Shown in pieces: positions 143 to 32,941 of a DNA stretch of 64,000 nt. The number at the start of each line of letters is the position of its first letter. Position 1 is the first letter of the stretch. The DNA comes from Candidatus Poribacteria bacterium (GTDB lineage Bacteria > Poribacteria > WGA-4E > JAJDTR01): positions 2,016,001 to 2,080,000 of the forward strand of contig CBDCTK010000002.1 of assembly GCA_965222225.1 (NCBI GenBank), in the 5' to 3' direction. The translations under genes and the position numbers were made by a program. Under the pieces are notes generated by a model, which was not told where the DNA came from, searched no databases, and worked only from the letters and a program-made list of their open reading frames with translations.

Positions 143-329
143 ATTGAGCGATTGACTAACGAGAGATTATATGACTGAATATGGAATGCGATAGAGTTCC
201 CCTAGAAATCCCTTGTTAATTCCTACATTGCCACCTCTTGTTAAGGTTTGTAAGAGCTCGCTCATGCGAAGTATATTGCAGGAAAAGGCTGGTGGAATCC
301 CTATCGCAGTCATTATCCATTCCATTGAT
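143..329. repeat. Micro-element copies: 166-200 (-) nested in split copy 143-165/201-211; 295-329 (+) inside a REP
   Basis: Match to the GGAT..CTATCGC..TTGAT framework, 35 nt each. Confidence 0.85.
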
Positions 330-366
330 CGCAGTGCGCACCCTACAAATGTGCTTTTTGAGGTCT

Positions 367-423
367 GTAGGAGCGAGCTCCCGATCGCGACGTTCATATC
401 GCGAGCAGAGCTCGCTCCTACAG
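367..423. repeat. REP doublet (REPIN-like), GTAGGAGCGA family
   Basis: gtaggagcgagctcccgatcgcgac ... atcgcgagcagagctcgctcctac; related copies near 1676, 2931, 9935, 10045, 22679, 26279, 27441, 31056. Confidence 0.8.
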
Positions 424-476
424 AAAACCGAACCACGAACGTACTAATAAATTCATAATCTATTGCAAGGAGGTAA

Positions 477-1646
477 ATGATGGCGATTTCAGTATCCACA
501 GTTGCAGCGATGCTCATGTTGGGCTTACTGGCGACATCCGCCGCTCGAACTCACATTGAAGGGCACAGTCATACCCGTGCTAGCATTCACAGAGTTACGT
601 GGGGAACGGTCGATGACAAAACCGTCTACTTGTACACGCTGGATAACGGGCAGGGCATAACCGCAAAAATCACCAACTACGGGGCGCTCCTTACGGAACT
701 TCACCTCCCCGACCGCAACGGCGAGAACGCCGATGTCGCCCTCGGATTCGATACGCTTGACGGCTACCTCGCCGGTCACCCGTATTTCGGCTGCACGGTT
801 GGTAGAGTCGCCAACCGCATCGCCAACGGCAAATTCACGCTTGATGGAAAGGATTACACGCTGGCGACTAACATGGGTAGTAGCCACCTGCACGGCGGAG
901 AAAAGGGATTTGACAAAATGGTATGGGATATTGTCGAGGCGAAGGAAAACGATGCGGGCGCCTCCTTGACGATGAAATACGTCAGTCCCGGCGGTGAAGA
1001 GGGCTATCCCGGCAACCTGACGGTGACGGTTACTTATACACTGAAGGCGCGCGACCTTCGGATCGACATGCGCGCCGAAACCGACGCACCTACCATCGTG
1101 AATCTTGCCAACCATGCTTACTGGAATCTCGCGGGGCATGACGCCGGCGATATCCTGAAGCACGAATTGAGCCTGAATGTCGACAACTACACGCCGACGG
1201 ACGAAACAGTCATCCCGACGGGCGAGATTGCATCGGTGAAAAACACGCCGTTCGATTTCCGCGAATCCAAACCGATTGGGAGGGATATTGGACAGTTGCC
1301 CGGCGATGGCGGCGAGGATCCCGGGGGATACGACATCAATTTCGCTCTCAATGGCGAGGCGGGGACGATGAGGTTGGCGGCTCGCGTCAGCGAACCGAGT
1401 TCCGGCCGCAATATGGAAGTCCATACCGACGCACCGGGGGTGCAGCTCTACACCGGCAACTACCTAGATGGGTCATTTAGCGGCAAGGGCGACACCGTCT
1501 ACAAAAAACATGCGGGGTTCTGCCTTGAGACCCAGCACTTTCCGGACGCAATTAACAAAGAGGGGACACCCGGCTGGCAATCGGTTATTCTGCGCCCGAT
1601 CGAGGTCTATAGCCACAGCATTCTCTTCAAGTTCTCGACAGAGTGA
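477..1646 (+). CDS. galM: Aldose 1-epimerase (galactose mutarotase) with N-terminal signal-like peptide
   Basis: Motifs GRVANRI, HLHGG, NLANHAYWNL, GFCLETQHFPD; RBS aggaggt upstream; hydrophobic N-terminus. Confidence 0.92.
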   Translation: MMAISVSTVAAMLMLGLLATSAARTHIEGHSHTRASIHRVTWGTVDDKTVYLYTLDNGQGITAKITNYGALLTELHLPDRNGENADVALGFDTLDGYLAGHPYFGCTVGRVANRIANGKFTLDGKDYTLATNMGSSHLHGGEKGFDKMVWDIVEAKENDAGASLTMKYVSPGGEEGYPGNLTVTVTYTLKARDLRIDMRAETDAPTIVNLANHAYWNLAGHDAGDILKHELSLNVDNYTPTDETVIPTGEIASVKNTPFDFRESKPIGRDIGQLPGDGGEDPGGYDINFALNGEAGTMRLAARVSEPSSGRNMEVHTDAPGVQLYTGNYLDGSFSGKGDTVYKKHAGFCLETQHFPDAINKEGTPGWQSVILRPIEVYSHSILFKFSTE

Positions 1647-1705
1647 GATTCTGTTTGAAATCACCGCAACCGGTAGTAGGAGCGATCTCCGAATCGCGAC
1701 CGATT

Positions 1706-1787
1706 GTCGGGAATCGGAAGGGATCTCTATCGCGCTCCTTATCCAGTCGCTTGATCTCAGTTGATCGTTCGGTTGATCCCGACTTAC
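1706..1787 (+). repeat. REP (gtcggg...cccgacttac) carrying micro-element 1721-1755 and two tail remnants
   Basis: ggatctctatcgcgctccttatccagtcgcttgat + ctcagttgat + cgttcggttgat. Confidence 0.85.
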
Positions 1788-1906
1788 GGGAATGGGTGGG
1801 AATTTGGGTATGTTAATAAACACATGTGTAATTCTTAGTTGCAATGACTATAAATGTAAATTTATTCATGAAGGTTACTCAACTCATGAATCAGGAGAGA
1901 AACAAG

Positions 1907-2881: not shown

Positions 2882-2930
2882 AGATTGGAAGGATGGAAGG
2901 GCGGAATGGAAGTTGATTGACACGAATTTT

Positions 2931-3423
2931 GTAGGAGCGATCTCCAGGTCGCGACCTCCTGTAGGGTGGGATCAAAGGAGTGAGTAGCGACTACGATAGA
3001 GATCCCCTGCCCACCATTTCTTGTAGCAATCGAGAGCGATCGGATAAGGAGCGTTCAACTGAGTGATTAACGAAGGCCATAGAAGATCTTGATAGAGATC
3101 CCATCGCGACAGAACTCCCGTGGAACTCCTCCCGGCCTTTGAAAGCGCCAGCGGCGCGACAGGTGTATAGCGCGCCATTATTCCGTCAGGGATAATGGCG
3201 CGCTATAGATAAAACGTCGGGGCAAGATGCCCCTCCTACATAAAAATGTAAGGCAGTGCCTATTCTACATATCTATCAAGAACACTCTTTCAAAGCTAGT
3301 CATAGAGCGAAAGATGAGTGTTTCTTGCTGAAAGAATCATTCCGACAGGAACGATGGTGTGCTATACACCTTCGGGATTTCTACCGCACTCGCTATTCGC
3401 TCCCTTGATCCCACTCTGGGGCT
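2931..3423. repeat. Mosaic of REP palindromes and micro-elements (2971-3005, 3054-3089, 3375-3409) plus a long hairpin at 3166-3207
   Basis: Direct reading; several GTAG/CTAC-bounded palindromes. Confidence 0.8.
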
Positions 3424-3543
3424 TGCGAAGATTGGTTTCAAGGCAAATTGTGCCATTACAAATTGGCTTTCAAACGGCTCGTATTTTAATCCAAGTCTCT
3501 CACCCAAAATCGCGGTTCACCAACAAAATCGTTCGGAGAGAAA

Positions 3544-5070: not shown

Positions 5071-5185
5071 TCTCAAGAGGGCTTACGCAGAAAGCAAAAT
5101 CAATGATTATTTCAGGTTTCAGGCGTTTCGTAGGGAATAACGATCATTATTCCCTACAGTATCAACATGAACAAACCTTAACACA

Positions 5186-5782
5186 TCACCGCAGACAACT
5201 CTGTACAATCTCGCGGTAAACCTCCAATCCGGGTGTTTCGAGGTTCTTTACTTTCGCGAGGTCGTCCCACCGCCGCAAGTTGAGCGCATCTTCGGAATAG
5301 GGGATTCGCTCAAACGCCAACCGCTCATCGTCCGACATGACCCCGCCCTGAACTCGGAAACTCCGCTTTGACGCTTCGGATAAACCGTCGTAATATTCCG
5401 CATCTGTCGTGCATAGGTACCGCTTTGCGGGCACGTGCAATCGCACCGGCGTCGTAACCGCGTCCGGGAAAAACGGCTCCAGAAAGTTCGCGCCAACCTC
5501 CTCGTGATTCAGGTCGTGTGCCAAGAACGCTTTGTCGGCATTATGTTCGTCCAACAAAAAGTGTCCCAGATCATGTAACAGGGCGCTTGTAATCTGCGTC
5601 GGCGTGGCATCATTGATGTGAGCTTGGTTGGCGCATTGGAGCGCGTGTTCCAGTTGTGTCACGGACTCGTCGTAAAAGGATTGTCCCCTCCGTACCATAC
5701 AGTCGAACAGGATGGCAATCTTCTGGTGGCTTGTCGCGCGCGCCATGTCGTCCGCGAGCGTTTGGTCAATACTATTCTTCAT
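5186..5782 (-). CDS. phnZ: HD-domain diiron oxygenase, PhnZ-like
   Basis: TQLEHALQ, ALLHDLGH, HEEVGA, HVPAKRYL, QGG, LRRWDDLAK; overlaps the upstream PhnY-like gene. Confidence 0.75.
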   Translation of the reverse strand: MKNSIDQTLADDMARATSHQKIAILFDCMVRRGQSFYDESVTQLEHALQCANQAHINDATPTQITSALLHDLGHFLLDEHNADKAFLAHDLNHEEVGANFLEPFFPDAVTTPVRLHVPAKRYLCTTDAEYYDGLSEASKRSFRVQGGVMSDDERLAFERIPYSEDALNLRRWDDLAKVKNLETPGLEVYREIVQSCLR

Positions 5783-6563
5783 AGTTCAATACAGTCCTTC
5801 CCTGAAAATGGGCTATCTTGCTGATTTGACCCGACCTTCCCGACTCATCTGCCGCGTACTGCGAAAACGCCTGACGCTTGTCCTCGTAATACTTATCGCG
5901 CCAATCGCCATCGGAGAGGTGATTGTAGACGGCGTAGATGATGCGTCTGGGGGTATCTGAACCGTTTGCATCGCTCTTGTGGGGAATGTAGGAGCTGAAC
6001 AACAGAACATCACCCGGTTGCGTGGGCGCGGCAACCCAATCCATGCTTTCTGCAATTTCGGGAGCGATACAACCGTCCGTATCCAGCGCAATCAAGCCCT
6101 CCCGATGCCGCCCGGGCGAGAAGTACAAACACCCGTTCTCGACCGTCGCCGCATCTATTGAGATTAGGCATGTGGTGTGGTTTTTGACGAACTCGTAGGC
6201 GGGTGCATCCTGGTGGGGAGCGTAACCGCCACCGCCAGGGTATTTGTAGTTGATTTTCTCTTTGTAGAGCACGGCAGGCTCGCCTGTCAACTCCGAAATC
6301 ACCTCCGACACTTTGCCAGCCGTCAGGATCGATTTCATTCCCTCATGATACGGAGCGAAGTTTTCCGTGCGCGAGAGCCGGGTTCCGTCCGATACCGATT
6401 CGTAATGGTGCATCCACCTCTGCGGATCTTGCCCCCAGCTTTCGATTTCAGTGACCCATTGACATAGCGCGGCGACCTCGCTATCCGAGAAGAATCCGCG
6501 AATCCTAAGGTATCCGTTGGTTTCCCAAGCGTTGTGCTGTGACGGTTCCAGGTAAGTAGACAT
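5772..6563 (-). CDS. Fe(II)/2-oxoglutarate dioxygenase, PhyH family, PhnY-like
   Basis: KEKINYKYPGGGGYAPHQD plus distal His; coupled to the PhnZ-like gene. Confidence 0.8.
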   Translation of the reverse strand: MSTYLEPSQHNAWETNGYLRIRGFFSDSEVAALCQWVTEIESWGQDPQRWMHHYESVSDGTRLSRTENFAPYHEGMKSILTAGKVSEVISELTGEPAVLYKEKINYKYPGGGGYAPHQDAPAYEFVKNHTTCLISIDAATVENGCLYFSPGRHREGLIALDTDGCIAPEIAESMDWVAAPTQPGDVLLFSSYIPHKSDANGSDTPRRIIYAVYNHLSDGDWRDKYYEDKRQAFSQYAADESGRSGQISKIAHFQGRTVLNYEE

Positions 6564-6695
6564 AAAGCATGTCCTCGTTGTTGGGGTTGGATGGGGTGTC
6601 GGATTTCACAAAGATTTCGGTGTATTCAAGCATTGTGGAGTGCCGAATGCGCAGGTTACGGCATACAGAGTGTGCCTACTACTGTTTGCTGCTTC

Positions 6696-8633: not shown

Positions 8634-8694
8634 GTAGGGGCGGGGATCAAATGAGCGAATAGCGAATACGATAGGGATCTTCCCGCCCCGCCCT
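8634..8694 (-). repeat. REP gtaggggcgggg...cccgccccgccct with micro-element 8646-8680
   Basis: 35-nt insert separates the two arms of the palindrome. Confidence 0.82.
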
Positions 8695-9934: not shown

Positions 9935-10070
9935 GTAGGAGCGATTAAGCGAACGAACAGGGAGCGCGATAGTAAATCCCGTGCGATAGGGATCCTAACG
10001 CGATAGAGCTCCCATAGAGATCCCTCTCCCGGTCGCGACCTCCTGTCGCGAGTAAAACTCGCTCCTACAG
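9935..10070 (-). repeat. REP doublet with micro-element 9944-9979 and three stacked head remnants
   Basis: gtaggagcg[36-nt copy][..gcgatagggatcc][..gcgatagagctcc][catagagatcc]ctctcccggtcgcgac. Confidence 0.82.
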
Positions 10071-10798: not shown

Positions 10799-10824
10799 CA
10801 AGCTGAGGATGAAGGTTAGGTATC

Positions 10825-15175: not shown

Positions 15176-15528
15176 CTGGGTTTCACGGTGTTCAAACCAA
15201 CCTACGGACTATGTTGATTTGAGGATTTCTATCGCTAGTGCGATTGGATTTATTATCGCAGTAAAGCCCGTTTGAAACATAATTAGAAGAGTCATCTTCC
15301 TACATTTTAAGTATTATTCTCTGTCGCCCCGCTGGGGCTTAGGTGCGCGGAGGTTTCGGTGTATCTATACACCTCTCGCACCGCTGGCGCTCTCCGAGGC
15401 TGGTGGGCAGTGCCCACCCTACAACTAGAATTGGCTATCCGGTCCCAGCGGTTAGAGAGTGCCCTGAATGGTCGGAGGCGTACGGAGGGGTTAGGGGATG
15501 CGCCGGGCGGTTATTGGTTGGCGCGGCG

Positions 15529-19697: not shown

Positions 19698-20567
19698 ATG
19701 GGCGAAATCTATTCTCCCGGTCGGCGTTTTCGTGATGCGTTATCCGTAGAATGCCCGTTGCAGATTGTTGGCGTTATCAACGCTTATGCCGCAATCATGG
19801 CGGAACGTGTGGGGTTTCGAGCTATCTATCTCTCCGGATCGGGGGTGGCAAGCGCGTCTTACGGTTTGCCGGATTTGGGCATGACCACGCTAAATGACGT
19901 GCTGGAGGATGTGCGTCGGATTACGAACGCGACCGAACTGCCGTTACTCGTGGATGCGGATACGGGTTGGGGCAACGCGTTTATGATTGCGAAGACCGTT
20001 CGCCAGATGATTAGGGCGGGTGCCGCCGCTGCCCATATTGAAGATCAGGTGAGCGCCAAGCGTTGCGGTCACCGCCCGAACAAGGAAGTTGTAAGCCCGG
20101 ACGAGATGGTAGACCGAATCAAAGCCGCCGTGGATGCGAAGACGGATCCGGACTTTGTTCTCATGGCGCGGACGGATGCGCTCGCCATTGAAGGGCTTGA
20201 TGCCGCTATCGAACGTGCGTGCCGATACAAAGATGCCGGAGCGGATATGATTTTTGCGGAAGCCGTTACCGAGTTGGAGCAGTACCGAAAGTTTGCAGAC
20301 GCGGTCTGCCTTCCGATTCTGGCGAATATAACGGAGTTTGGCAAAACCAATCTTTACACAACGGAGGAACTCAGGGGCGCCGGAGTGAGTTTGGCGCTTT
20401 ATCCGCTGTCCGCGTTTCGCGCGATGAATGCCGCCGCGCTCCGTGTGTTTCAGGCGTTGCGGGATGAGGGGACGCAAAAGCGCGTGGTTGATATGATGCA
20501 AACGCGAGACGAATTGTACGAAATCCTCAATTATCATGAGTACGAGCGGAAGATTGATCGGTTTTAG
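19698..20567 (+). CDS. prpB: 2-methylisocitrate lyase
   Basis: [35 protein letters not shown]. Confidence 0.95.
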
Positions 20568-20615
20568 AGGAAGAACGGGGAATTGAGGATTTAACAAACG
20601 CAGGTCGTGTTAGGG

Positions 20616-20713
20616 GGATTACGAAGGATGGTGGGCAGGGGGATCTCTATCGCAGTTGTTATTCACTCCTTTGATCCCACCCTACTATCGCCCTCCCTAT
20701 CCGGTCGGTCGAT
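20616..20713 (+). repeat. Three-layer nest: micro-element containing a REP containing a micro-element (20641-20675)
   Basis: 20616-20622 plus 20686-20713 rejoin into a 35-nt copy. Confidence 0.75.
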
Positions 20714-20775
20714 CGATGTCGGATATGGAATGGACTGATTTACAGGGCGACTTTTGTTGTCGCATGAGGTAAACA

Positions 20776-21897
20776 ATGCAAGCAAAAAAGGCAGGTGGTT
20801 TGGCAGGTGTCACCGCCGGTGAAACGGCTATTTGTACCGTGGGTAGAGAAGGGATAGGCTTGACCTATCGCGGGTATGGTATCGACGATTTGGCTGAGCA
20901 CGCGAGTTTTGAGGAGGTCGCTTACCTGCTCATTCATGGCAAGTTGCCCACACAGTCGGAACTGGATGGTTACCGAGAGACGCTGATTGGCGCACGGGGT
21001 TTGCCGACGGGGCTGAAAACGGTGCTTGAACAGTTGCCGGGCGATGCGCATCCGATGGATGTGCTGCGTACAGGTTGCTCGGCGCTGGGGACGATTGAGC
21101 AGGAAACGGAAAGCACAAACCAGTCTCATATTGCCGATCGGCTTGTAGCTAGTCTCCCGTCAATGTTGCTCTATTGGTACCATTTTCATGAGAGCGGGGT
21201 ACGTATCGAGGTGGATACGGATGACGACACGACCGCCGGGCATTTTCTGCATCTGTTGCATGGTCGGGAGGCTGACGAGTTGCAACGCTGCACGGTCGAT
21301 GTGTCGTTGATTCTTTACGCGGAGCACGAGTTTAACGCCTCGACTTTCGCGGCACGTGTCGCCGCCGCCACACTCACCGACTTCTATTCGGCGGTCTCCG
21401 GCGCCATCGGCGCGCTCAGGGGACCGTTGCATGGCGGCGCCAACGAAGCGGCGATGGCGTTAATCGAACAGTTCGGAACGCCGGACGAGGCTGAAACTTC
21501 TGTCCTAGATATGCTCGCGGCAAAGCAGCTCATCATGGGGTTCGGGCACCGGGTGTACACCGTTTCGGATCCGCGCTCGGACATCATCAAAGGATGGTCG
21601 CGAAAACTCTCCGAAGCGAGCGGAGATTTGACGTTGTTTCAGGTTTCCGAGCGGGTTGAAGAGGTGATGCGGCGGGAGAAGAAGTTGTTCCCGAATCTTG
21701 ATTTCTATATGGCGTCCGCGTATCATCTCTGCGGGATTCCAACGCCGATGTTTACGCCGATTTTTGTCATGGGCAGGATAGCGGGCTGGGCTGCGCATAT
21801 CATTGAGCAGCGGAGCAACAATCGTTTGATTCGGCCGGGGGCGGAGTATATCGGTCCGGACCCGACGGCTTACGTACCCATCGGGGAGCGGGAATAG
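20776..21897 (+). CDS. prpC: 2-methylcitrate synthase
   Basis: EHEFNASTF, GPLHGGANE, GFGHRVY, PNLDF; follows prpB. Confidence 0.92.
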   Translation: MQAKKAGGLAGVTAGETAICTVGREGIGLTYRGYGIDDLAEHASFEEVAYLLIHGKLPTQSELDGYRETLIGARGLPTGLKTVLEQLPGDAHPMDVLRTGCSALGTIEQETESTNQSHIADRLVASLPSMLLYWYHFHESGVRIEVDTDDDTTAGHFLHLLHGREADELQRCTVDVSLILYAEHEFNASTFAARVAAATLTDFYSAVSGAIGALRGPLHGGANEAAMALIEQFGTPDEAETSVLDMLAAKQLIMGFGHRVYTVSDPRSDIIKGWSRKLSEASGDLTLFQVSERVEEVMRREKKLFPNLDFYMASAYHLCGIPTPMFTPIFVMGRIAGWAAHIIEQRSNNRLIRPGAEYIGPDPTAYVPIGERE

Positions 21898-21983
21898 CGC
21901 GGCGGGAATGGAAGGAGGGAAGAGCGGATTGGCGTGGACGGACGGAATCGTGGATTTGGTGATTGTCGATTTGATTCTACAGT

Positions 21984-22078
21984 AAAGGCTGGTAAGAGTT
22001 CTATAGGACCTCTATCGCACTCGCTAATCGCCCATTTGATCTGCCTTGACCGTTATTCACTCGCTTGATCCCAACCTA
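21984..22078 (+). repeat. Degenerate REP with micro-element 22006-22040, one head and two tail remnants
   Basis: Direct reading. Confidence 0.75.
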
Positions 22079-22208
22079 AAAGTTTGATTGTTTTATTGGC
22101 TTTTTTGGATTCGTTGTGTTATACTTAATGGTTAGTTCGGACTTTGTATGAAGGTTCAATGTAAACGCTAAAACTTGTACCGAATGAATTTTTAGGAGGT
22201 AATCGGAG

Positions 22209-22478
22209 TTGTCCCATAGAAAATCTGGAGTAAAACATGTTCGTGCGGATAAGAGAAAAGCGGAAGTAAATAGAAGGCGAAAGGTGACGCTGAGAACGAC
22301 GTTAAAGAATGCCGAAGCTGCCATCGCAGCCGGGGATTCGGAAGTCGCCGAGGGACTGTATCGTCAGGCTTCCGGGCGCCTTGACAGGGCGGCACAGAAA
22401 GGCGTAATCAAGCGAGGCACAGCGGACCGCCGGAAGTCACATCTTGCGCAGAAGTTAAACGGCATGAGCGCCGACTGA
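22209..22478 (+). CDS. rpsT: 30S ribosomal protein S20
   Basis: 89 aa basic protein, KSGVKHVR...LDRAAQKGVI...RRKSHL; TTG start with RBS aggagg. Confidence 0.9.
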   Translation: MSHRKSGVKHVRADKRKAEVNRRRKVTLRTTLKNAEAAIAAGDSEVAEGLYRQASGRLDRAAQKGVIKRGTADRRKSHLAQKLNGMSAD

Positions 22479-22514
22479 GTATTGAATTTTTCAGGTCGGT
22501 AGAGGTATCCACCC

Positions 22515-22551
22515 AAAAAGCCCCCAACTCGGAAGAGTTGGGGGCTTTTTT
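22515..22551 (+). terminator. Rho-independent terminator, probably bidirectional
   Basis: AAAAAGCCCCCAACTC-GGAA-GAGTTGGGGGCTTTTTT after rpsT. Confidence 0.85.
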
Positions 22552-22742
22552 CATTGCGGTTTGTAGGCTGGTGAGGGACCAGTCGGACACGAGATGAAAA
22601 GAATGGAGGTGGGCGATTGGGAGAGTGAAGATTGTTGCGGCAAACCAAGTGCAAAAGTGAGCTTGGCCCGTGACAGGAGGTCGCGATCCGGAGATCGCTC
22701 CTACAGTATGACTATAATGGTGTCAATCGAGTCTATACAATG

Positions 22743-22865
22743 CGGGGCAAGATAATCGCTATCGATCAGCCGACTGGATAAGGGGGGATCAAGCGAATGA
22801 ATAATGAGTGCGATAGAACTCCCATAGAAAATCCTGCTCGCTATCCGCTCGCTGGATCCCCTACA
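22743..22865. repeat. REP (cggggcaagat...cctac) holding three nested micro-elements
   Basis: Inner 22788-22822 (-), middle 22765-87/22823-34 (-), outer about 22754-64/22835-57 (+). Confidence 0.8.
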
Positions 22866-22979
22866 GAAACTAACTCCTGCGATTGGGGACGCATTGCAAA
22901 TCGTAGGGGTTGGGTTTCCCAACCCGTTGGGTGGGGTGTTCGCATTGGTAGAGGGGTCTCGCTTAAACGTCAACACACC

Positions 22980-23786
22980 CTACTTTTTCCATGAATTGTG
23001 CCAGACGAGGGTGTTCTGGTTTTCATCGTTCAGGAGATCGCCGATCTTGAGGGAATTGAAGAGGTCTTTCCGTAGGATATTACGTTTGCCGTTAAAGGTG
23101 CACCCATCGGGCATGAAGGCGCATGTCATGGCGCGGCGCGGGGTTATGGTCATGTTGGCGCCCGCGGCGTGCGCCATCAACCCGTTATGCCAGACGATCG
23201 AGCCGGCGGGGCAGGGCACCGGTTGCGGCTCAATGTTGCGCCATTCCGGATAAATCGTGAAGAGTTCGCCGATGTTTTGACCGATGCCGCAGTTCTCAAA
23301 ACGCGCGGTGAGGTGGCTGCCGGGAATGTACCACATACAGCCGTTGGCAAGTGTCGCATCATCCAACGCCACCCAGCAAGAAATAGCCTTCCGTGAATCG
23401 AACGACCAGTACGGGACATCAAGGTGCCATGCGGTCGGATTGCCGTGAGGCGGTTTGATAAGCGCTTGATCGTGCCAGATTCGAATCCCTTCCACTCCCG
23501 CCAGCGCCGCTCCCATCCGTCCAAGCCGGGGATTATGAATCAAATCTCTCATGCCGGGGTGTGTGTCGGCGAGCCGGAGGCACTGCGTAAAGACCCGGGC
23601 ATAAAAGTCGTCGGGCTGCATCTGGTTCGTCATAACATCAATGGAATTCCCCAACCGATCGGCGACGGCTTCGTCCGTGCATTGACGCCACTCCTCCAGT
23701 TCGCCAGCGTCGAGGAAATTCTCAACCGCGATTGATCCGTTGGTTCGGTAGAATTCAATCTGTTGACCTGTCAGTTCGTCCTTCAT
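22980..23786 (-). CDS. Phytanoyl-CoA dioxygenase (PhyH) family protein
   Basis: WHLD, ALDDAT..NGC..IPGSH, HAAGAN. Confidence 0.88.
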   Translation of the reverse strand: MKDELTGQQIEFYRTNGSIAVENFLDAGELEEWRQCTDEAVADRLGNSIDVMTNQMQPDDFYARVFTQCLRLADTHPGMRDLIHNPRLGRMGAALAGVEGIRIWHDQALIKPPHGNPTAWHLDVPYWSFDSRKAISCWVALDDATLANGCMWYIPGSHLTARFENCGIGQNIGELFTIYPEWRNIEPQPVPCPAGSIVWHNGLMAHAAGANMTITPRRAMTCAFMPDGCTFNGKRNILRKDLFNSLKIGDLLNDENQNTLVWHNSWKK

Positions 23787-23970
23787 AAGGTGTCATTTGC
23801 CCTTAACGTAGTTCGACTTCGTATACTTAGCTCGACTTTGTACATCTAGGCCGAATAACAGACGATGGCAACCAAGCGTTGAAGAAAAGCAGGGGAGATT
23901 TTAGCCATCTGGTCTTTTTAGTTGACTATTGAAAAAGTCGTCAGCGGTTTCTGAGATCATGCAACCTGTA

Positions 23971-24023
23971 AGATCTCTATCGACTTGGGATCTTCTATCG
24001 CGCTCATTATTCATTCGCTTGAT
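23971..24023 (+). repeat. Micro-element 23988-24023 plus a head remnant
   Basis: ggatcttctatcgcgctcattattcattcgcttgat. Confidence 0.85.
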
Positions 24024-24030
24024 CCTTGCA

Positions 24031-24924
24031 TTAAAGGAAGAACGGGTTTGACCACGCCTTCTTGCCTTCCTCATCGACGATTTCCACGCGGACATATTTC
24101 ATGCCGCTCGGCACAGGGTACTCCGCCTCGGTTAGGCTTTCGCCTTTCGGAGCGAGGATACGCCGCCCGAGATTGCATTGTCCTTTGAATATGATGGACC
24201 GGGCGGGGGAACATTTGACAACGACTTTTTGTTCGCGGGCGGAGTCGCCAACCAGATCGAGATTCACAATTTCGGGACCGAGCGTCGAATAGAAGGCGCC
24301 GGTGCGGAAGGCATTCATGATCGCGTCGATTGTGAGCTCAGCCGCTTTTACCATAACCCAGGCGTGGAAGCAGTCGTGTTCAGTACCGTGCGCATCGTCG
24401 GCGGCAATGCCAAAGACAGGTCCAAGCCGATCTAGCACATCGTCCCACGCCTGTTCGGAGAATCCTTTCCCGCAGGCGCCCATACAGGTGTCGTTGTAGA
24501 CTTCGACGGCGAAGTAGCCGTTGAGTTGCTCGTAATCCTGAATCGTGTGTCCGCACCAGTACGGGTGGCAGAGCACGGCTTCCCCGCCTTGGGCTTTGAT
24601 TTCGGCGAGGACATCGTTGGGGTGGAGTTCGGCACAGTTGATACGTTCGCGGAGGTTGATGCCGACGATGTGATAGGTTCCACCTCCGTATGGATTATCA
24701 GGATGAACTTCGCTGCCGGAGATGGCGAGGAAGTTATCACGGCTGTAAGGGGATACGTCGTTGACTTTTCGGTGATCGGTGAGCACGAGGAAATTGTATC
24801 CGGCGTCACGGTAAGCGGCGAAGCGTTCGTCCATCGGAATCCTGCCATCGGATTCGGTGCTGTGACTGTGTGTGTTCCCTCGATACCATTGTCCGGACTG
24901 TTTGAACGGGTTTAGATTCTCCAC
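24031..24924 (-). CDS. PHP-domain metallohydrolase (CehA/McbA-like)
   Basis: GNTHSHSTESDG, LTDH, CHPYW, ADDAH, AWSNP; GTG start with RBS aggag. Confidence 0.78.
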   Translation of the reverse strand: MENLNPFKQSGQWYRGNTHSHSTESDGRIPMDERFAAYRDAGYNFLVLTDHRKVNDVSPYSRDNFLAISGSEVHPDNPYGGGTYHIVGINLRERINCAELHPNDVLAEIKAQGGEAVLCHPYWCGHTIQDYEQLNGYFAVEVYNDTCMGACGKGFSEQAWDDVLDRLGPVFGIAADDAHGTEHDCFHAWVMVKAAELTIDAIMNAFRTGAFYSTLGPEIVNLDLVGDSAREQKVVVKCSPARSIIFKGQCNLGRRILAPKGESLTEAEYPVPSGMKYVRVEIVDEEGKKAWSNPFFL

Positions 24925-25131
24925 AGGGCGTCTCCTTTTTTGTGATGTAGATTCTCATCTTAGCACACGGGGGTGGAAATGAGAAGGGGAAAAAGGGGAA
25001 GGATGGAAGAGAAGCAGTGGTCAGTGACCAGTAAAACCAGGGGCGAGCAGTGTGTGAGAAGGGAGCGAGATTGGAAGGGAAGTGGTGGGCGGGTCAAGAT
25101 GGCGCGCCTATCGAAGTTCGGCAGGGCAAGA

Positions 25132-25220
25132 AGATTTCTATCGATCAAGGGAGCGACCAGCGACTGCGATAGCCAATCCCGCGCGGATAGCCCATCCTGC
25201 TCATTGTTCAGTCGCTTGAT
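25132..25220. repeat. Nested micro-elements: 25144-25179 (-) inside 25132-43/25198-220 (+)
   Basis: Outer halves rejoin to 35 nt. Confidence 0.82.
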
Positions 25221-25225
25221 CCCGA

Positions 25226-26050
25226 CTACGGGTTGACTGCGTCTCTTGCCAAGTGGGGGAAGAGCTGGTCATGGATTTCCATTGGCTGGCGGAGGTGAAC
25301 CATTCGATTCTCGTCGGCGGTGTCTATCATGGTGGGATAGTATATGCCGGCTCCGGTTTTGAGCTTGTAACCGCCCGGCGAATGTACGCTGAGATAGCGG
25401 CGCGCGAATTCGAAGTCTTCGGGTGTTTTGGCGCGGCGGGTGCAATTCATGGTGAACATGCGCCTGCGATTTCCGCCGCCGAAGGAGGCGTGGTAGAGAT
25501 CGTGATTGAAAACCACAACATCGCCCGGATTGGTCTCCATGGCGACGCTGTCGGGGAAGTCCGTGGGCGGGACGCCGAAAAGCTCAAGTGAGTTATTGAC
25601 ATCTATCTTCCCCGTGCGGACGAAGTGATCGGGCTTGTGGCTGCCGGGAATGAAACGCAGCGCCCCCGTGTCGCGGGTGAGCGGATCCAAATAGAACGCA
25701 ATCTTGGCGGCGAAGAGCTGCCCCCAGCTTCCGTCGGGGTGCCAGCCGGTGTTGCCGCTGTAGTAGTTTCCGTCGCCGCCACAGTAGTTGAAATCGTCTC
25801 CCAGAATGCTTCCGATAAGGTCGAGTATCATGGGGAGATCGAGCAACGCGCACATGTCGGGTCTATGTTCAATGGGTTTTAGGAACATGGTGCGGCGCGA
25901 GCCGTCGTGGTCTCGTCCGCCGCCGCAGTTTTGGATTGACCATTCAAATCTTTCGATGATTTCGTCTGTCTCTTCAGGTGAGAACAGTTGCGGGATCAGC
26001 AGGTAACCAAAGGTGTCGAAGAATCTCAGTTGCTCTTGCGTCAGTGGCAT
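25226..26050 (-). CDS. PhyH family dioxygenase
   Basis: WHPD, GALRFIPGSH, PGDVVVFNH..H. Confidence 0.85.
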   Translation of the reverse strand: MPLTQEQLRFFDTFGYLLIPQLFSPEETDEIIERFEWSIQNCGGGRDHDGSRRTMFLKPIEHRPDMCALLDLPMILDLIGSILGDDFNYCGGDGNYYSGNTGWHPDGSWGQLFAAKIAFYLDPLTRDTGALRFIPGSHKPDHFVRTGKIDVNNSLELFGVPPTDFPDSVAMETNPGDVVVFNHDLYHASFGGGNRRRMFTMNCTRRAKTPEDFEFARRYLSVHSPGGYKLKTGAGIYYPTMIDTADENRMVHLRQPMEIHDQLFPHLARDAVNP

Positions 26051-26350
26051 TTTTTGTTACCTCCTAGAAGAAGGGGATTGGAAAGGTGGAAGCGTGGAAG
26101 GTTGGAAGGGTGCCTTCCGCGCCGGCTTGGATTTTCTGGAGCGGGAAAATGGAAGCGGAATATTTGGGTTTCACGGGGTTCAACGCAACCTACGGGCTAT
26201 AGTCATTACAGCTAAGAATTACACATTTAGGACCCACATTGTTCGGTTTGCAGTAACGTAATTTACTGCACGTCTTCTGTAGGTGCGAGCTCTGCTCGCG
26301 ATAAGAAGTCGCGACCTGGAGATCGCTCCTACAAAGACCCATACCTGTCG

Positions 26351-26421
26351 GGATCTCTATCGATCAACTGAGTGGATAGCGAAGGCGATAGAAAATCCTA
26401 CTCGCTATCCACTCGTTTGAT
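26351..26421. repeat. Nested micro-elements: 26363-26398 (-) inside 26351-62/26399-421 (+)
   Basis: Outer halves rejoin to 35 nt. Confidence 0.85.
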
Positions 26422-27238
26422 CGGGCCGATTGGGCCAGACGAGCGGGGTCTGAGATTCGTCGTCGAGGACGTCTCCGATATTGAGTGCGGCTACCTGCTC
26501 ATCGGACAGAACGTTTTGGATACCGTTGAAGGTCACCCCATCCGGCATATAGATGCAGGTCATCGCTCGGCGCGGATACGGCGTCATATTCGGGCCGGCG
26601 GCATGGGCAGTGAGTCCGTTGTGAAACCCGGCAGATCCAGCCTTCATCTCGGCTGCCACAGGATCAATCTCTCTGAATTCGGGATATTCGTCGAAGAGAG
26701 CACCCATATTCGGGCCAAAATGCCCTTTTTTTTCATAGTTGGTCATCTTGTGTGAGCCGGGCAGATAATACAGGCAACCATTCTGAAGCGTCGCATCGTC
26801 CAAGGCAATCCAAATGGAGATGGCGTCAGGAGAGTGAAATGACCAATTGGGATCATCCACGTGCCAGGATGTGGGGTTGTCCCAGGCGAGTTTCTGTAGT
26901 GTCTGATCGTGCCACACCCGGATGCCGTCAATGCCAGCGAGTTTGCAAAGCATTTTCCCCAGCTCGGGGTTCAGAAAGTGCCTTTTGACGGCGTCATTGA
27001 TTTTCCACAGGTTGACTCGCTGCAGAAAGACCCTTTGGTTAAACGGCTTCACCTCTTGGAAGAGCGCTTTGTTGCTTTTTCCTCCGTCCGCAATTCTGTT
27101 GCTCCCCATCTGCGTCACGGTTTCACTGACAGCGAAGCACATTTCCTGCAGCTCGTCGGAGGTGAGAAAGTCTTCGAGTATGAGCCAACCCTCGCGCTGA
27201 TAAAGTTCAACTTGTTGGGATGTCAATGCTGTTTTCAT
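26405..27238 (-). CDS. PhyH family dioxygenase; last codons and stop lie within a micro-element copy
   Basis: WHVD, ALDDAT..NGC..LPGSH, HAAGPN; clear paralog of 22980-23786. Confidence 0.88.
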   Translation of the reverse strand: MKTALTSQQVELYQREGWLILEDFLTSDELQEMCFAVSETVTQMGSNRIADGGKSNKALFQEVKPFNQRVFLQRVNLWKINDAVKRHFLNPELGKMLCKLAGIDGIRVWHDQTLQKLAWDNPTSWHVDDPNWSFHSPDAISIWIALDDATLQNGCLYYLPGSHKMTNYEKKGHFGPNMGALFDEYPEFREIDPVAAEMKAGSAGFHNGLTAHAAGPNMTPYPRRAMTCIYMPDGVTFNGIQNVLSDEQVAALNIGDVLDDESQTPLVWPNRPDQTSG

Positions 27239-27489
27239 CTTAATGCCTCCAAATTACAGATTATTGAAAATCGACTTAGCATGTCTACTGCTCAAGCCAA
27301 CAGGCAGTCAATAAATACCTGTGGTAGCAGGTATGAAACCTTTTCTGAAGCGGAATCCGGTTTTCCAAGTGGTTTGCTTGATAAGTGTTTAATGCAAGTC
27401 AAGAGGTCGAGACCGGGCGACTGCTCCTACAGGGACGCGCAGGTCGCGATTCGGAAATCGCTCCTACCAGTTAGCGTAAGGCGGTTTAC

Positions 27490-27541
27490 GGCACACGGGG
27501 GTTTCTATCGCACTCCTTATTCAGTCGCTTAATCCTACTAC
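27490..27541 (+). repeat. REP ggcacacgg..cctactac with micro-element 27499-27533 replacing 6 nt
   Basis: Compare the intact repeat at 6660-6682, ggcatacagagtgtgcctactac. Confidence 0.8.
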
Positions 27542-27553
27542 TTTGAAACGATG

Positions 27554-28405
27554 TTACCTAGGTTTCTTTATATGTGCCCACGTTGTGACGAGTTTTCCGG
27601 GCGTAGAAACGGCTAACGTATCAGCCAATCCCTCCTCGGTGAGTTGTTGGAGATCTTCCTCGGACAGCGCAACCTTAAAGACGGCAACATCGTCTACCAT
27701 GCCGTCCAAATAGTGTTCGTCACGTGGTTTTGCCGTTCTTCCAATGTTTAGGGGCGCCCCTTTTGCATTTCCTGCCTTGATCGAGGTCGTCCAGTCTTTC
27801 TCGCCAATCAGTTTTCCGTCATAGAACATCCGCATTTTATTTCCGCTACGTCCCATCGCGTAATGATGCCACTCCATATACTTATAGCGCCCAGGGACTT
27901 GGGGGCCCATATCTGTACCACCGCCGCCGCCGCCGCCGCAACCGATACAAAAATGAAAATATAATTGTTCGCCGGCGCAACAATGCCTTAACCTAAACCA
28001 CCATCCATCCCAGAATACCGCATCCAAAAGTGCAGATGTGTAGCCCATGATGTTGTAACGTCTGTCTTTTCCTCGTTGGTCCATAAGGACGTAGGCAGCG
28101 ATGGTAAAGTCATCGTCTCCAAATGCCCAAGCATCATTGGCGTTCGGCACCTCGACATAACCATCCTCGCCGTCCAGCACTATGCCGCCGCCAAACTTCC
28201 CCTTTCCCCAAGTGGCACCGCCCTTGAGTGTCGCAATGTTCCCATTACGGCTGAGATCAACACTTCGCTTTCCTTCACCCTCATCAAAGCTCAACGCGAC
28301 TACGGCGCTCCTGATATTTATCTCGGCATCGCCGGTTTCCATCATCAGACTGAAGGAGGCAATTGCCACAGTTACCATGAGTGACGCAATAGTTAGACAT
28401 TTCAT
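27554..28405 (-). CDS. Secreted LamG-like jellyroll protein with KLVTTW tail
   Basis: SFDEGEG, GKFGG, WHHYA, GMVDDVAVF, PGKLVTTWAHIK; RBS gaggtg before 28405. Confidence 0.82.
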   Translation of the reverse strand: MKCLTIASLMVTVAIASFSLMMETGDAEINIRSAVVALSFDEGEGKRSVDLSRNGNIATLKGGATWGKGKFGGGIVLDGEDGYVEVPNANDAWAFGDDDFTIAAYVLMDQRGKDRRYNIMGYTSALLDAVFWDGWWFRLRHCCAGEQLYFHFCIGCGGGGGGGTDMGPQVPGRYKYMEWHHYAMGRSGNKMRMFYDGKLIGEKDWTTSIKAGNAKGAPLNIGRTAKPRDEHYLDGMVDDVAVFKVALSEEDLQQLTEEGLADTLAVSTPGKLVTTWAHIKKPR

Positions 28406-30642: not shown

Positions 30643-30716
30643 ACGGTTTTATGCCTTCTACAAGGGTTGGCTATTTAGCTATTCCTGTATTAGTGGTTTT
30701 CTCGCCGAGTGAATAG

Positions 30717-30802
30717 GGTAAGTGTTGGGTGTCGGTAGCTAACATTGTCTGAAGTGTGATTCATGGGATTTTGGGATTACCTTGATTGTAGGCGTTTAGT
30801 GG
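30717..30802. repeat. About 86-bp direct repeat, copy 1 (copy 2 at 32715-32800)
   Basis: ggtaagtgttgggtgtcggt.gctaacattgtctgaa..gtgattcatgggattttgggattaccttgattgt. Confidence 0.9.
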
Positions 30803-30873
30803 TTTATTCGCTAAGAGAGGATACGATAAAGTGTTCAGTTGCCAGTAGTGATTCTCCAGCCAACCCCCTTAGG

Positions 30874-31044
30874 GGAGTTGTATCAGGAACTCCTATCGCA
30901 GTCAATGTGGGATCTCTATCAGAATCTTCTATCGCGCGGGATTTACTATCGCACGCACTATGGGATTTGCTATCGCCTTGGGATCTCTATCGCGGTCGTT
31001 ATTCACTGCCTTGATCTATCCGCTCAGTTGATTGGTCGGTTGAT
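30874..31044 (+). repeat. Deep stack of micro-elements: six heads, one intact copy (30981-31015), two tails
   Basis: Seven GGA..(C/G)TATC starts followed by three TTGAT ends. Confidence 0.85.
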
Positions 31045-31201
31045 CCTACGGAGTGGCGAGTAAAACTCGCTCCTACAGAAGACACGCAATAAATGAAGAT
31101 CCCATCTTCGATTTGACGATCAAAGAGCGCTACTGCAAACCGAACTGCGTAAATCCTATGTGTTTAATTCTTAGTTGCACTGACTATAGTAGTGACTTGG
31201 G

Positions 31202-32671
31202 TTAGTACGCCACTGAAGTCAAGATCTCGTGTACAATGATTGGGTTGTCTGTCTTATCTAGCTCGGAATTGCACCAGACAGTTAGGTCGTTGCGTCCCAC
31301 GTTCATGATGCCGGAGGGTACTTCTGCCGAATAACAGCCGTTCCGGGGCTGCAGGTCTAGCAGCGTATGGTTGAGGCGCATCCAGACCTTTGCGTCAGTG
31401 CCTCCGCCGGTGGTCAGTGCATGAATCCGGAAGTGCGCGTCGGGATTATTCGCGTCGGGTCCCATCTTCAGAGGTAATCTGCGTTCATGGATGTCCAACG
31501 GAATGGGAAGCGGAGCGATCTCGGAAGCCTGACTGAACATTCCTGCAACTGCGAGCGGTTCGATGCCGTAGAGCTTGTCGTTGCCGACAAGCTCGGCAGG
31601 ATCGCCAATTTCCTTCAGTGGCGCATATACGCGCTTGTTATCCAATCCCCGCACATCTACGTGGGTGAAGAAGTTAAAAAGATAAATACCATCGACTCCT
31701 TCGTGCCACCACCAGGCGGCGGCTCCACGGATGTATTCCTGCCATGCGTAAGGCTGCGCCGCTATCTCGGGGCACCACCGGAGAGGAGGTCTGGCACAGA
31801 ACGAAGGATAGACGGACACCCCGTAACGCTCGCCCACGGCTTTCCAGCCCTCTAGATTGAATGTGAACGGCATTAACCCCATGCCGGCAACCAAGACATC
31901 CACCAGCCCCTGCGACAGCCAGGTTTCGATGTCCTGTCCAAGGAGAAGGGAGCTCTCAATGGAATCCATCACACGCACCACCAATGTGTATGGACGATTA
32001 CGTTGGCGGGCGATAGCGTTCAACTCAGAGCGTACGCTCCGCACGAAGTCTGTCATGAGCGGGGCAAGTTCGCGTTCTCTGCCCAACGGGAAGTTCCAGA
32101 TCCAGCGCGAAAAGTCCAGCTCGTAGCCGTCGAAGTCGTGGGCGGCGGCATTGCGGCGGATGAAATTAAGCCGGTGTTCTCGCACTTCGGGGCGCTCGAA
32201 GTTGAAGGCGGTACGCAACATACGCTCGACATGTTCTTCGGGTAGATTGCGGTCGTCGGACTTACCGATTAGGTATTCCGGATGTTCCGCTTTTAGGGGA
32301 TCGTTGGTTTCCTCCAGGTCAAGCTCATGGTCGTGCAGGTCGTTCATGCGAAGTGAACCCCAGATTTCCATGCGCTTGGCGTGGCAGGCGTTGATGATGA
32401 GATCGGTCGCGCGCTGTGATGTACCGAGGGCAGGCCAGATAGGGCCACGGTGTTTGGGGCCCCAGATCGGTCCCCACGGGGGATCGCAGCCGTTTCCGAC
32501 ACACCAGACGTATGTGTCGACGTGCGTGTCGAAGGTAGGCGTGGTTCTGGCGTCGATGAACGACTGCTCATCCGTGATGTTGTACCAGTGTTTGCGGCTG
32601 CGCTGGTTTGTTTGTTGATAGGCGTCGTCGTTGTAGATGAGGCGTCGTTGGCGGTCTCTATCGAATAGCAT
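31202..32671 (-). CDS. Putative TIM-barrel glycoside hydrolase (GHL10-like)
   Basis: LIYNDD, SLRMNDLH, FDGYELDFSR, DGIYLFNF. Confidence 0.55.
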   Translation of the reverse strand: MLFDRDRQRRLIYNDDAYQQTNQRSRKHWYNITDEQSFIDARTTPTFDTHVDTYVWCVGNGCDPPWGPIWGPKHRGPIWPALGTSQRATDLIINACHAKRMEIWGSLRMNDLHDHELDLEETNDPLKAEHPEYLIGKSDDRNLPEEHVERMLRTAFNFERPEVREHRLNFIRRNAAAHDFDGYELDFSRWIWNFPLGRERELAPLMTDFVRSVRSELNAIARQRNRPYTLVVRVMDSIESSLLLGQDIETWLSQGLVDVLVAGMGLMPFTFNLEGWKAVGERYGVSVYPSFCARPPLRWCPEIAAQPYAWQEYIRGAAAWWWHEGVDGIYLFNFFTHVDVRGLDNKRVYAPLKEIGDPAELVGNDKLYGIEPLAVAGMFSQASEIAPLPIPLDIHERRLPLKMGPDANNPDAHFRIHALTTGGGTDAKVWMRLNHTLLDLQPRNGCYSAEVPSGIMNVGRNDLTVWCNSELDKTDNPIIVHEILTSVAY

Positions 32672-32714
32672 GTGTACCCGATCCTTTTAAATGGTCTATT
32701 TTCTAAGAGTATAT

Positions 32715-32800
32715 GGTAAGTGTTGGGTGTCGGTCGCTAACATTGTCTGAACCGTGATTCATGGGATTTTGGGATTACCTTGATTGTCAGTGTTTGGTGG
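32715..32800. repeat. About 86-bp direct repeat, copy 2
   Basis: Matches 30717-30802 with about 7 substitutions. Confidence 0.9.
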
Positions 32801-32851
32801 CTGATTGTCTGAATCGCGGATTAGGTTCGGCTAAGCGATATCTCTCGTAGA

Positions 32852-32941
32852 GTCGGGCTAGAAAGGATTTCTATCCGGATTTTCTATCACCCTCCCTGTC
32901 CGGTCGGTTGATCGCTATTCGCTCGCTTGATCCCGACCTAC
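32852..32941 (+). repeat. REP gtcgggctagaaa..cccgacctac with micro-element 32877-32912 nested in a second split copy
   Basis: Direct reading. Confidence 0.82.

Follow-up and report, generated by a model that had tools for sequence, protein, structure and literature searches.

The closest described relatives of the element reported here are the repetitive extragenic palindromes (REPs and REPINs) and the RAYT nucleases that go with them, and how hairpins of this type multiply is still unsettled. According to work on Escherichia coli, binding by TnpA-REP needs the C:A/A:G bulge of the REP hairpin and is abolished when the bulge is corrected (PMC3479197). The E. coli RAYT is described as cutting REP DNA in vitro, but movement of a repeat is not known to have been reconstructed (PMC3479197, PMC6006769). 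The second source, a 2018 survey, also describes Y1 subclasses with atypical, weakly folding repeats that have no GTAG (PMC6006769). REPs inserted inside other palindromes have been noted before (PMC3733652), and among cyanobacterial repeats the small dispersed repeat SDR5 is described as inserted in HIP1 (PMC5861425). Here we analysed a stretch of 64,000 nt ("the window", G000:C2:2016001-2080000) from the 5.70-Mb, two-contig genome of a Candidatus Poribacteria bacterium (GCA_965222225.1, here G000), in which an initial annotation, made from the sequence alone, had picked out a 35-36-nt unit inserted in REPs. A comparable habit has reportedly been described by Elhai et al. in 2008 for heterocyst-forming cyanobacteria, whose SDRs of 21-27 nt are said to behave as mobile, to be inserted in other repeats and to have no known enzyme. 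We found no publication on the repeats of Poribacteria.

We propose, with a probability of about 60%, that the unit is a REP-like "nano-element", a non-autonomous single-stranded DNA (ssDNA) element of 35-36 nt that is moved in trans by a nuclease, probably of the HUH/Y1 type. The initial annotation had placed it in none of the MITE, REP, attC and CRISPR categories. This is too strong, as the broad definition of a REP-like repeat takes it in, and it also resembles the very small SDRs described for cyanobacteria. Like the REP/REPIN-RAYT systems, whose repeats span 20-40 nt, the element is an imperfect palindrome with conserved mismatches, occurs in hundreds to thousands of extragenic copies, is lineage-specific, produces no target duplication, forms inverted doublets in a second genus (g4) and has the same replication-strand bias as the REPs of G000. 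Unlike a REP, it has no GT[AG]G or CGTC foot, its folding strand starting with 5'-GATCAA; it has no cognate REPtron, each intact gene among the five Y1 loci of G000 and the eight of g4 being flanked by another repeat family, in which the element occurs only as a nested insert; and it is itself a parasite of REPs, inserted in one orientation, whose singlet insertions are directly visible. We know of no classical REP for which singlet insertion events have been shown. The SDRs of Nostocaceae, compared provisionally, come closest in behaviour, being described as nested in other repeats, missing from orthologous sites and free of duplication; they belong to another phylum and differ in sequence, and the present element is longer. 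What we demonstrate for the present element is that its hairpin covaries and conserves G.A mismatches, that its orientation obeys a rule and that it is biased with respect to the replication strand.

Copy number and borders of the element

With at most one mismatch, the pattern CTATCGCNNTCNNT matched the window 28 times against 3.83 expected, a count reached by none of 100 dinucleotide-preserving shuffles, and all 17 copies listed by the initial annotation, on both strands, are among these matches. A covariance model built here (R1) gave 22 matches: besides the 17 copies already listed, it picked up four that are degenerate or split and a further one at 54523-54562. Genome-wide, the 29-nt core CTATCGC..TC..T.T.C..TC..TTGAT was found 1238 times with up to four substitutions (627 exact, 285 with one, 125 with two), while the reversed genome yielded eight matches, each with 3-4 substitutions. 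The 1037 copies with at most two substitutions form the base set for the G000 counts below; because they were picked by this pattern, conservation at its fixed positions is biased upward.

Across the 1037 copies, sequence information is about zero outside -8 to +31 (counted from the C of CTATCGC), and the unit is therefore sharply bounded; 1030 copies stand in unique contexts. The remark that the TTGAT end is almost always followed by C agrees with the 89% of copies in which this is so. Outside the four variable pairs described below, positions are more than 95% conserved across about 1000 copies and across two genera. The element is mostly intergenic, with 956 copies outside crude open reading frames (ORFs) and 81 inside crude ORFs of at least 120 aa, and its orientation is unrelated to that of the genes (295 copies in the same direction, 340 opposed). 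One copy in the related genome G005, at the orthologue of G000:C2:657696, replaces part of an apparent coding sequence. At G000:C2:4056543-4056695 lies a tandem array of five 38-nt units, each consisting of an element copy and a CTACAAGA-type tail and differing in the variable pairs; these look like serial insertions at one junction, not duplication.

A covarying hairpin

On the strand complementary to the motif first described, the element reads 5'-ATCAA-NN-GA-NN-G(RAU)A-NN-GA-NN-GCGAT-3', followed by the tail AGARATCC(C). The variable NN positions of this folding strand make up two covarying helices, in which four base pairs vary freely while remaining paired. Among 1002 distinct copies, mutual information was highest for the position pairs 11-19, 8-22, 7-23 and 12-18, all symmetric about one centre, and the Watson-Crick share of these pairs was 93%, 90%, 70% and 83%, respectively. 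The main non-Watson-Crick class on the motif strand is A.C, with 238 copies at 7-23 (24%) and 136 at 12-18 (14%); G.T accounts for about 1-2%. An A.C opposition on the motif strand is a G.T wobble on its complement, and it is therefore the G/A-rich complementary strand that is under structural constraint. On that strand the conserved T.C and C.T oppositions of the motif strand become purine-purine mismatches: a tandem G.A/A.G pair, mostly in the context 5'-YGAR-3', lies between the two variable helices and is adjoined by single A.G and G.A oppositions. An A.C mismatch is also conserved in the hairpin, the loop is G-RAU-A and the foot is ATC/GAT.

In an alignment of 26 sequences from two genera, 97.3% of cells were paired compared with 75.1% in shuffles, double changes occurred in four of seven pairs, and the covariation score of 0.677 (versus 0.233) was reached by none of 500 shuffles, with slid controls at 0.138 or below. 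Under RNA nearest-neighbour energies, the G/A-rich strand was the stabler one in 94% of copies (mean -4.6 versus -1.9 kcal/mol; shuffles -2.5), and 861 of the 1037 copies adopted exactly the proposed fold. The hairpin is real by covariation, although it is weak in the DNA model. The statement of the initial annotation that there is no strong hairpin is thus not borne out as far as a conserved imperfect hairpin is concerned, which was overlooked by eye because it is thermodynamically weak under DNA parameters. Strong covariation together with a weak DNA-model fold suggests either that a protein stabilises the hairpin or that its G.A pairs are sheared, a geometry to which the DNA parameters give no credit. 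With regard to the idea that the variable positions act as a guide, the top 30 column pairs held no strong mutual information between these positions and the flanks. Certain element signatures do accompany particular targets, which is explained by co-amplification of REP::element composites.

Insertion sites and nesting

Removing the insert was said to restore a repeat that occurs intact elsewhere, and the intact repeats cited in support are present in the window. Genome-wide, the joined flanks (11+11 nt) of 128 of the 1037 copies gave an exact 22-mer found elsewhere in the genome. The removed length was 35 nt in 34 of these, 36 nt in 38 and 34 nt in seven, making 79 of 128 within 35±1 nt; longer lengths (41 nt in 19 cases, for example) reflect copies that are nested or lie in tandem. 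Only a single placement was possible, i.e. there was no microhomology, in 70 of the 128. No target duplication was seen at the junctions, as originally claimed, and the element has no terminal inverted repeats. Small losses of target do occur, over a range of 0-4 nt in orthologous and paralogous comparisons. As the borders slide like a window of fixed length (-8..26, -7..27, -6..28), the junction is always TTG|ATC, TTGA|TC or TTGAT|C; on the folding strand, a G, GA or GAT of the target lies immediately 5' of the element.

Insertions were found in no fewer than five unrelated repeat families; the commonest target is another copy of the element itself. REP1 is entered at two sites, both TGCG^CAC on the folding strand; REP2, REP-X (a GCCCC-NNN-GGGGC hairpin repeat), the GGAG^ATCGCTCCTAC REP and the GTCTGAATC...GGATTAA family are further targets, and the element itself is entered at several positions. 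Insertion into several REP families therefore stands, but REPs are not the main home that they were first taken to be, since about 57% of copies lie in or beside other copies. By simple flank rules, 177 of the 1037 copies are nested in a host copy in direct orientation, 35 are nested in inverted orientation and 382 more adjoin element fragments. A REP foot within 22 nt is the sole such feature at 189 copies, and REP-X accounts for many of the remaining 254 ("other"). Host break points in 100 completely resolved nests were at positions 3-9 or 15/16, with inverted inserts at 5/7. Nests are onion-like, with the 5' fragments of successive hosts on one side and the 3' fragments on the other (as at window 30893-31045). 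The conjectured capture at RAYT nicks would not by itself explain this self-insertion. The 16-nt flanks formed a perfect stem of 6 bp or more at 8.7% of sites versus 3.1% of random intergenic junctions. This enrichment is weak, since the majority of copies are located within stems or within other copies.

Orientation and replication strand

The REP foot CYTAC lies to the right of the motif strand at about 104 copies in REP1/2 (the two patterns overlap), 44 in REP3 and 82 in REP-X, while the inverse arrangement was found at 3, 2, 2 and 0 copies, giving about 230:7 overall. Stricter patterns gave 150 to 1, with 5-21 distinct element signatures per site and therefore many independent events, not one amplified composite. 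Given this near-fixed orientation, the folding strand lies on the GTAG strand of the REP, which is reported for E. coli to be the strand bound by RAYT nucleases (PMC3479197).

Orientation also follows GC skew. The motif strand tends to be the locally G-rich strand: the ratio is 263:127 where the skew is positive and reverses to 114:313 where it is negative (odds ratio 5.7, p about 6e-32, ~70:30), and the association holds for co-oriented and anti-oriented flanking genes, which points to a tie to replication, not transcription. Along the 5.6-Mb contig C2 (250-kb bins) the GC skew flips sign many times, and repeat orientation tracks the local sign; these changes suggest many inversions or assembly joins.

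Distribution and turnover among genomes

Counted by the pattern with at most one mismatch, the element occurs 620-1357 times per genome in all ten genomes of g1, the genus of G000, and 210-223 times in all four genomes of g4, which belongs to a different family. Genus g2 gave four matches, and there was no other bulk occurrence among 176 genomes from 31 genera of the phylum, so that lineage specificity, in the sense of abundance in two Poribacteria genera only, is confirmed. Stray copies (1-21 per genome) were present in eight genomes; of the four that were looked into, G010 has them scattered, while in G066, G125 and G146 they sit on between one and four small contigs per genome, probably through binning contamination. 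A covariance-model comparison across 41 relatives, with 150 candidates scored per genome, agreed with the pattern counts. In a collection of one genome per species, the matches listed comprise at least 101 stretches, all from Candidatus Poribacteria; phage records and IMG/VR contigs gave no element match. The element-bearing records cover 14 species-level genomes and include long-read chromosomes as well as Illumina bins from other groups, which disposes of a library adapter or barcode as the source. In genus g4 (stretch L119, ~1635-1760, 5490-5555 and 6290-6416), the tail is RAARA instead of GGGATYT, and the copies form head-to-head doublets around a 19-nt imperfect palindrome in short gaps of a cytochrome oxidase/ABC transporter cluster.

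Filled and empty alleles were found at orthologous sites of sister species, supporting the mobility proposed by the initial annotation at the scale of species divergence. Beside tnpA, CACCTGTCGCCCC is intact in G002, G009 and G004 and interrupted, with loss of CG, in G000, G001 and G005. The site at window position 27499 is filled in G000 and empty in G005 and G009; conversely, C2:5278865 is empty in G000 and filled in G005, and one nested copy is found in G000 only. The intergenic region that holds the copy at 23987-24026 measures 256 nt in G000 versus 24-39 nt in G001, G002 and G003. At 20639-20678 the same copy is present in G005, a different one in G002 and none in G001, G009 and G003; at 26360-26399 a different inner copy occupies the same place in G005; and the G005 counterpart of the nest at 30893-31045 is a different, simpler nest. 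At these re-occupied sites (20641 in G002; 26363 and 30981 in G005) the flanks are conserved and all four pairs have changed in a compensating manner.

We then compared 35 syntenic, element-bearing intergenic regions of G000 and G005 whose anchors are ~88% identical, taking as a match a same-strand copy that differs at no more than two of nine variable positions. Nine of the 72 G005 copies (12.5%) were matched in G000, and 26 copies were confined to G000. Copies common to the two genomes are nearly identical, and hypermutation is therefore not at work. Turnover is by gain, loss and re-occupation of hot sites.

Search for the mobilising enzyme

Among the five Y1 (HUH) loci of G000, the sole intact and widely conserved one is a single-copy gene for a 157-aa protein (G000:C2:3080258-3080728; L001/L006), which scores 65.8 bits with the NCBIfam IS200 model (cut-off 55) and 30.6 bits with the RAYT model (cut-off 80). 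Its motif YIKNQEAHH fits the Y---Q--HH signature of TnpA-Y1 subclass 1.2. According to the survey, members of this subclass are present in few copies, lack IS200-type ends and come mostly from cyanobacteria and Bacteroidetes (PMC6006769). At 14 loci in g1, g3, g4 and g6 (orthologues L015-L027) the gene is flanked by inverted REP-X doublets, and the element occurs there only nested within them. The layout is REPtron-like; the 2018 survey did not report one for subclass 1.2 (PMC6006769). Inverted flanking copies had first suggested this protein as the cognate enzyme, a role that we rejected as the flanks are REP-X and homologues occur in element-free genomes. It may perhaps be necessary but is not sufficient, and we refrain from naming it the partner. 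The box YCTATCGC is common to REP-X and the element, both of which read hairpin-GCGATAG on the folding strand; we regard this as a lead only.

The RAYT genes L003 and L004 (G000:C2:3088937-3089269 and 3727739-3727966) are interrupted in G000, one by a TAG stop and the other by a frameshift, and their own GTAG REP families are still abundant. The Y1 genes of g4 were set aside since they have their own REPs as partners. Also rejected was a reverse transcriptase (RT)-like protein of 670 aa, which hmmscan scored at 26.8 bits, below the cut-off of 29.6, and which is patchy in occurrence (five of nine other g1 genomes and one of four g4 genomes), often with stop codons. When the genome was compared with itself, no long element in multiple copies was found to have these ends. 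The one insertion sequence (IS) that is abundant belongs to the IS1595 family; this 1.28-kb repeat (45 copies), considered as a source, is unrelated.

Features of the window

The element copies and the empty target repeats of the window are collected in Table 1.

Table 1 Element copies and empty target repeats in the window. For element copies the strand is that of the folding, G/A-rich strand, and bits refer to model R1.
Feature	Position	Strand	Evidence
Element copy	163..202	+	49.5 bits; motif match (noted site 166)
Element copy in REP1 (GGCTGGTG^CGCAGTGCGCACCCTAC)	293..332	-	50.3 bits; minus 35 nt = 22-mer with 36 copies elsewhere
Element copy followed by host-copy 3' fragments, with TTGATC piled up to 1780	1719..1758	-	57.5 bits; sequence
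Element copy in REP2 (GTAGGGTGGG^...CCTGCCCACC)	2968..3007	+	51.7 bits; sequence
Degenerate element copy (noted site 3054)	3051..3090	+	28.5 bits
Element copy in REP-X (CTATACACCTTCG^CCCACTCTGGGGC)	3373..3412	-	51.2 bits; sequence
Element copy in GGGGCGGGG/CCCGCCCC palindrome	8643..8682	+	52.5 bits; sequence
Element copy, tail-fragment pile to 10025	9941..9980	+	48.7 bits; sequence
Element copy in REP2	20639..20678	-	56.4 bits; orthologue alignment
Truncated copy right after REP2	20683..20713	-	30.9 bits, model positions 4-34
Element copy	22004..22043	-	43.9 bits
Innermost copy of nest 22750-22870	22785..22824	+	56.3 bits; sequence
Split/degenerate host copy of nest 22750-22870	22825..22860	-	19.6 bits
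Element copy	23987..24026	-	54.3 bits
Inner copy, inverted, at CTATC^G of host copy	25141..25180	+	45.4 bits; sequence
Degenerate host copy	25184..25223	-	23.1 bits
Inner copy, inverted, in host copy 26350-26424	26360..26399	+	51.5 bits; alignments
3' part of interrupted host copy	26389..26424	-	22.1 bits
Element copy in REP GGCACACGG^CCTACTAC	27497..27536	-	52.6 bits; alignment
Innermost copy of onion-like nest 30893-31045	30979..31018	-	53.1 bits; sequence
Element copy, then 3' fragment and REP foot	32876..32915	-	47.6 bits
Further copy outside the range of the initial annotation	54523..54562	+	34.4 bits
Empty REP1, target family	88..112		Sequence; same family at 56478-56501
Empty REP-X doublet (15321-15391) and empty REP2 (15398-15422), target families	15321..15422		Sequence
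Empty REP of GTAGTAGGCAC family, target family	6655..6685		Sequence
Empty REP GGGGCAAGATGCCCC-TCCTAC, target family	3217..3240		Sequence

Positions 34409-35686 (G000:C2:2050409-2051686) hold a copy of the AT-rich 1.28-kb IS (~45 genome copies), encoding a 284-aa IS1595-family transposase (DDE_Tnp_IS1595, 126 bits, plus a zinc ribbon). Two adjacent segments of ~2.09 kb at 35970-40235 (G000:C2:2051970-2054057 and 2054147-2056235), each with one self-BLAST high-scoring pair, may be a tandem duplication. Logan contigs were drawn from X3, X5 and X9 (DNA) and X15 (RNA library). At 15492-16155 their depth was 10-100x that of neighbouring bins in all four runs, and within a 700-aa ORF the contigs of the RNA library leave out 385-390 nt (15792/15795 to 16181/16183), probably owing to a repeated domain common to other organisms. 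Rfam 15 gave no gathering-score match in the window and none on the element at E values up to 1 in 20500-27600.

Discussion

We favour an ssDNA element that is moved in trans. Under this proposal the element would move as single-stranded DNA exposed at replication forks, where a hairpin-recognising nuclease/ligase would cut and rejoin it, the likeliest being an HUH/Y1 enzyme of the IS200/RAYT superfamily. These enzymes are natural candidates because they act on ssDNA hairpins, need stem mismatches and include subclasses with weak repeats that have no GTAG. A single-strand mechanism is favoured because of the strand-specific wobbles, the fixed orientation to palindromic targets and the GC-skew bias. 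The initial annotation had thought of a mobile oligonucleotide, either ssDNA or cDNA: its mobility is upheld and the single strand favoured, while the cDNA version finds no support, the sole RT-like gene being patchy and often broken.

The element can be placed against other known systems as well. With IS200/IS605 and the palindrome-associated transposable elements (PATEs) it has in common that there are no terminal inverted repeats and no duplication, that it is hairpin-defined, strand-specific and linked to replication, and that its target is short (G/GA). It differs from them in having one hairpin in place of distinct left and right ends and 35 nt in place of more than 100, in its very loose target specificity and occasional target losses, in a folding strand mostly on the leading template, and in that no transposase gene was found between two ends. 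Unlike miniature inverted-repeat transposable elements (MITEs), it has neither terminal inverted repeats nor target-site duplication. An attC site is likewise a structure-coded, sequence-variable imperfect hairpin that recombines as a folded single strand with a strand bias relative to replication, but its R''/R' boxes (RYYYAAC/GTTRRRY) are missing from the element consensus, there is no cassette array and no attI, and the element is 35 nt, as opposed to 57-141 nt, and dispersed over ~1000 intergenic sites. Unlike CRISPR repeats, its copies all differ and are nested or dispersed without regular spacing.

Several observations weigh against our proposal. Under DNA parameters, ten folds (five copies, both strands) gave z values of -0.40 to +1.30, and neither strand beat shuffles. 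At some junctions 1-4 target bases are lost or replaced, whereas the IS200/IS605 reaction is exact. In most cases the C-rich strand, the leading-strand template, carries the folding strand; IS608 is described as preferring the lagging-strand template (PMC6006769). This opposite bias needs a survivor-bias argument, in which, speculatively, excision or deletion would more often remove copies whose active strand is exposed on the lagging template. Moreover, 76% of empty REP1 and 80% of empty REP2 copies show the same skew bias, and the element's bias may thus be its own or inherited from its targets. The initial annotation had looked to RT and RAYT/TnpA genes for a correlate, and the occurrence of the element follows that of no Y1 gene, RAYT or reverse transcriptase. 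The 157-aa Y1 protein has homologues in 9 of 9 genomes of g1 and 2 of 4 of g4, but also in the element-free g6 (7 of 7) and g3 (5 of 10); the RAYT L002 is present in only 3 of 41 genomes; and L003 and L004 are broken in G000 and have REPs of their own. No match to Y2_Tnp, MobA_MobL or Rep_trans was found in G000, the Y2 blank being weak as its control was silent too. Finally, in contigs of three other strains (~99.7% identity), which break at the element, the few bridged sites had neither gained nor lost 35 nt, a result that is uninformative for polymorphism and transcription. As far as IS200/IS605 is the model, the mostly leading-template position of the folding strand, the target losses, the loose specificity and the missing cognate gene are misfits.

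A bolder reading, which we put forward tentatively and well short of even odds, is a new class of mobile DNA: a 35-nt structure-coded hairpin hyperparasite, with neither a gene nor ends of its own, that would transpose as ssDNA, specifically invading the nuclease-bound strand of REPs as well as itself, and would be moved either by hijacking several resident Y1/RAYT nucleases or by another enzyme. Insertion might also need no dedicated enzyme, if the nascent strand at a stalled fork switched to one of the ~1000 copies and back. Hairpin-prone targets and small target losses would suit such templating, and the TTGA|TC, TTG|ATC and TTGAT|C junctions can be read as microhomology of 1-3 nt; but the borders are too exact, more than half of the resolved junctions have no microhomology, orientation is near-invariant on near-palindromic targets, and the conserved mismatches argue for a protein reader, so that we consider it unlikely. 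Nor do we think it at all likely that the element works at the RNA level, as a motif acting in transcripts or spreading via RNA and reverse transcription. The tolerance of G.U wobbles and the sheared-G.A motifs are typical of RNA, a tandem G.A pair is joined by a GNRA-like G-RAU-A loop, RNA energy parameters support the fold where DNA parameters do not, and some copies are covered by RNA-library contigs, although this is no proof of transcription. Against this, orientation is unrelated to gene direction and tied to GC skew, there is no Rfam match, and the RT-like gene falls below its cut-off, is patchy and often carries stops.

A site selected by the host, such as one bound by a nucleoid, replication or repair protein, with mobility in the past, would account for the strong conservation outside the pairs, the orientation along the replication strand and the intergenic location. 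Nests that destroy earlier copies, the 12.5% of copies shared between sister species and the absence of the element from most genera of the phylum make this quite improbable. Paralogue comparisons alone cannot separate insertion from deletion, and one could therefore deny mobility and see an old module of composite repeats whose "empty" forms arose by precise deletion. Yet five or more unrelated families contain one and the same 35-nt unit, which is also found at several positions within itself, with many signatures per site; the empty forms are perfect palindromes, and species-specific nests differ. We regard this explanation as very improbable. An adapter, barcode or assembly error deserves practically no credence: nothing was found in its favour, and a repeat seen by long-read and Illumina sequencing in 14 species-level genomes is intergenic, strand-biased and built of covarying pairs.

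For the ssDNA element that we favour, these genomes provide hundreds of before-and-after sites resolved to the nucleotide and show on which strand and at which target (3' of G or GA) it inserts, in what order copies nest and how fast they turn over; oligonucleotides and candidate Y1 proteins are therefore directly testable. Its variable-stem, fixed-mismatch design is a compact form of structure-coded recognition that could serve ssDNA tools. The element is one of the smallest mobile DNAs seen; if the new-class reading is true, it would be the smallest transposable unit to have been defined and would record directly how REP-type hairpins are cut and pasted. In these uncultivated sponge symbionts, repeats are parasitised by smaller repeats, and most intergenic regions have been reshaped.

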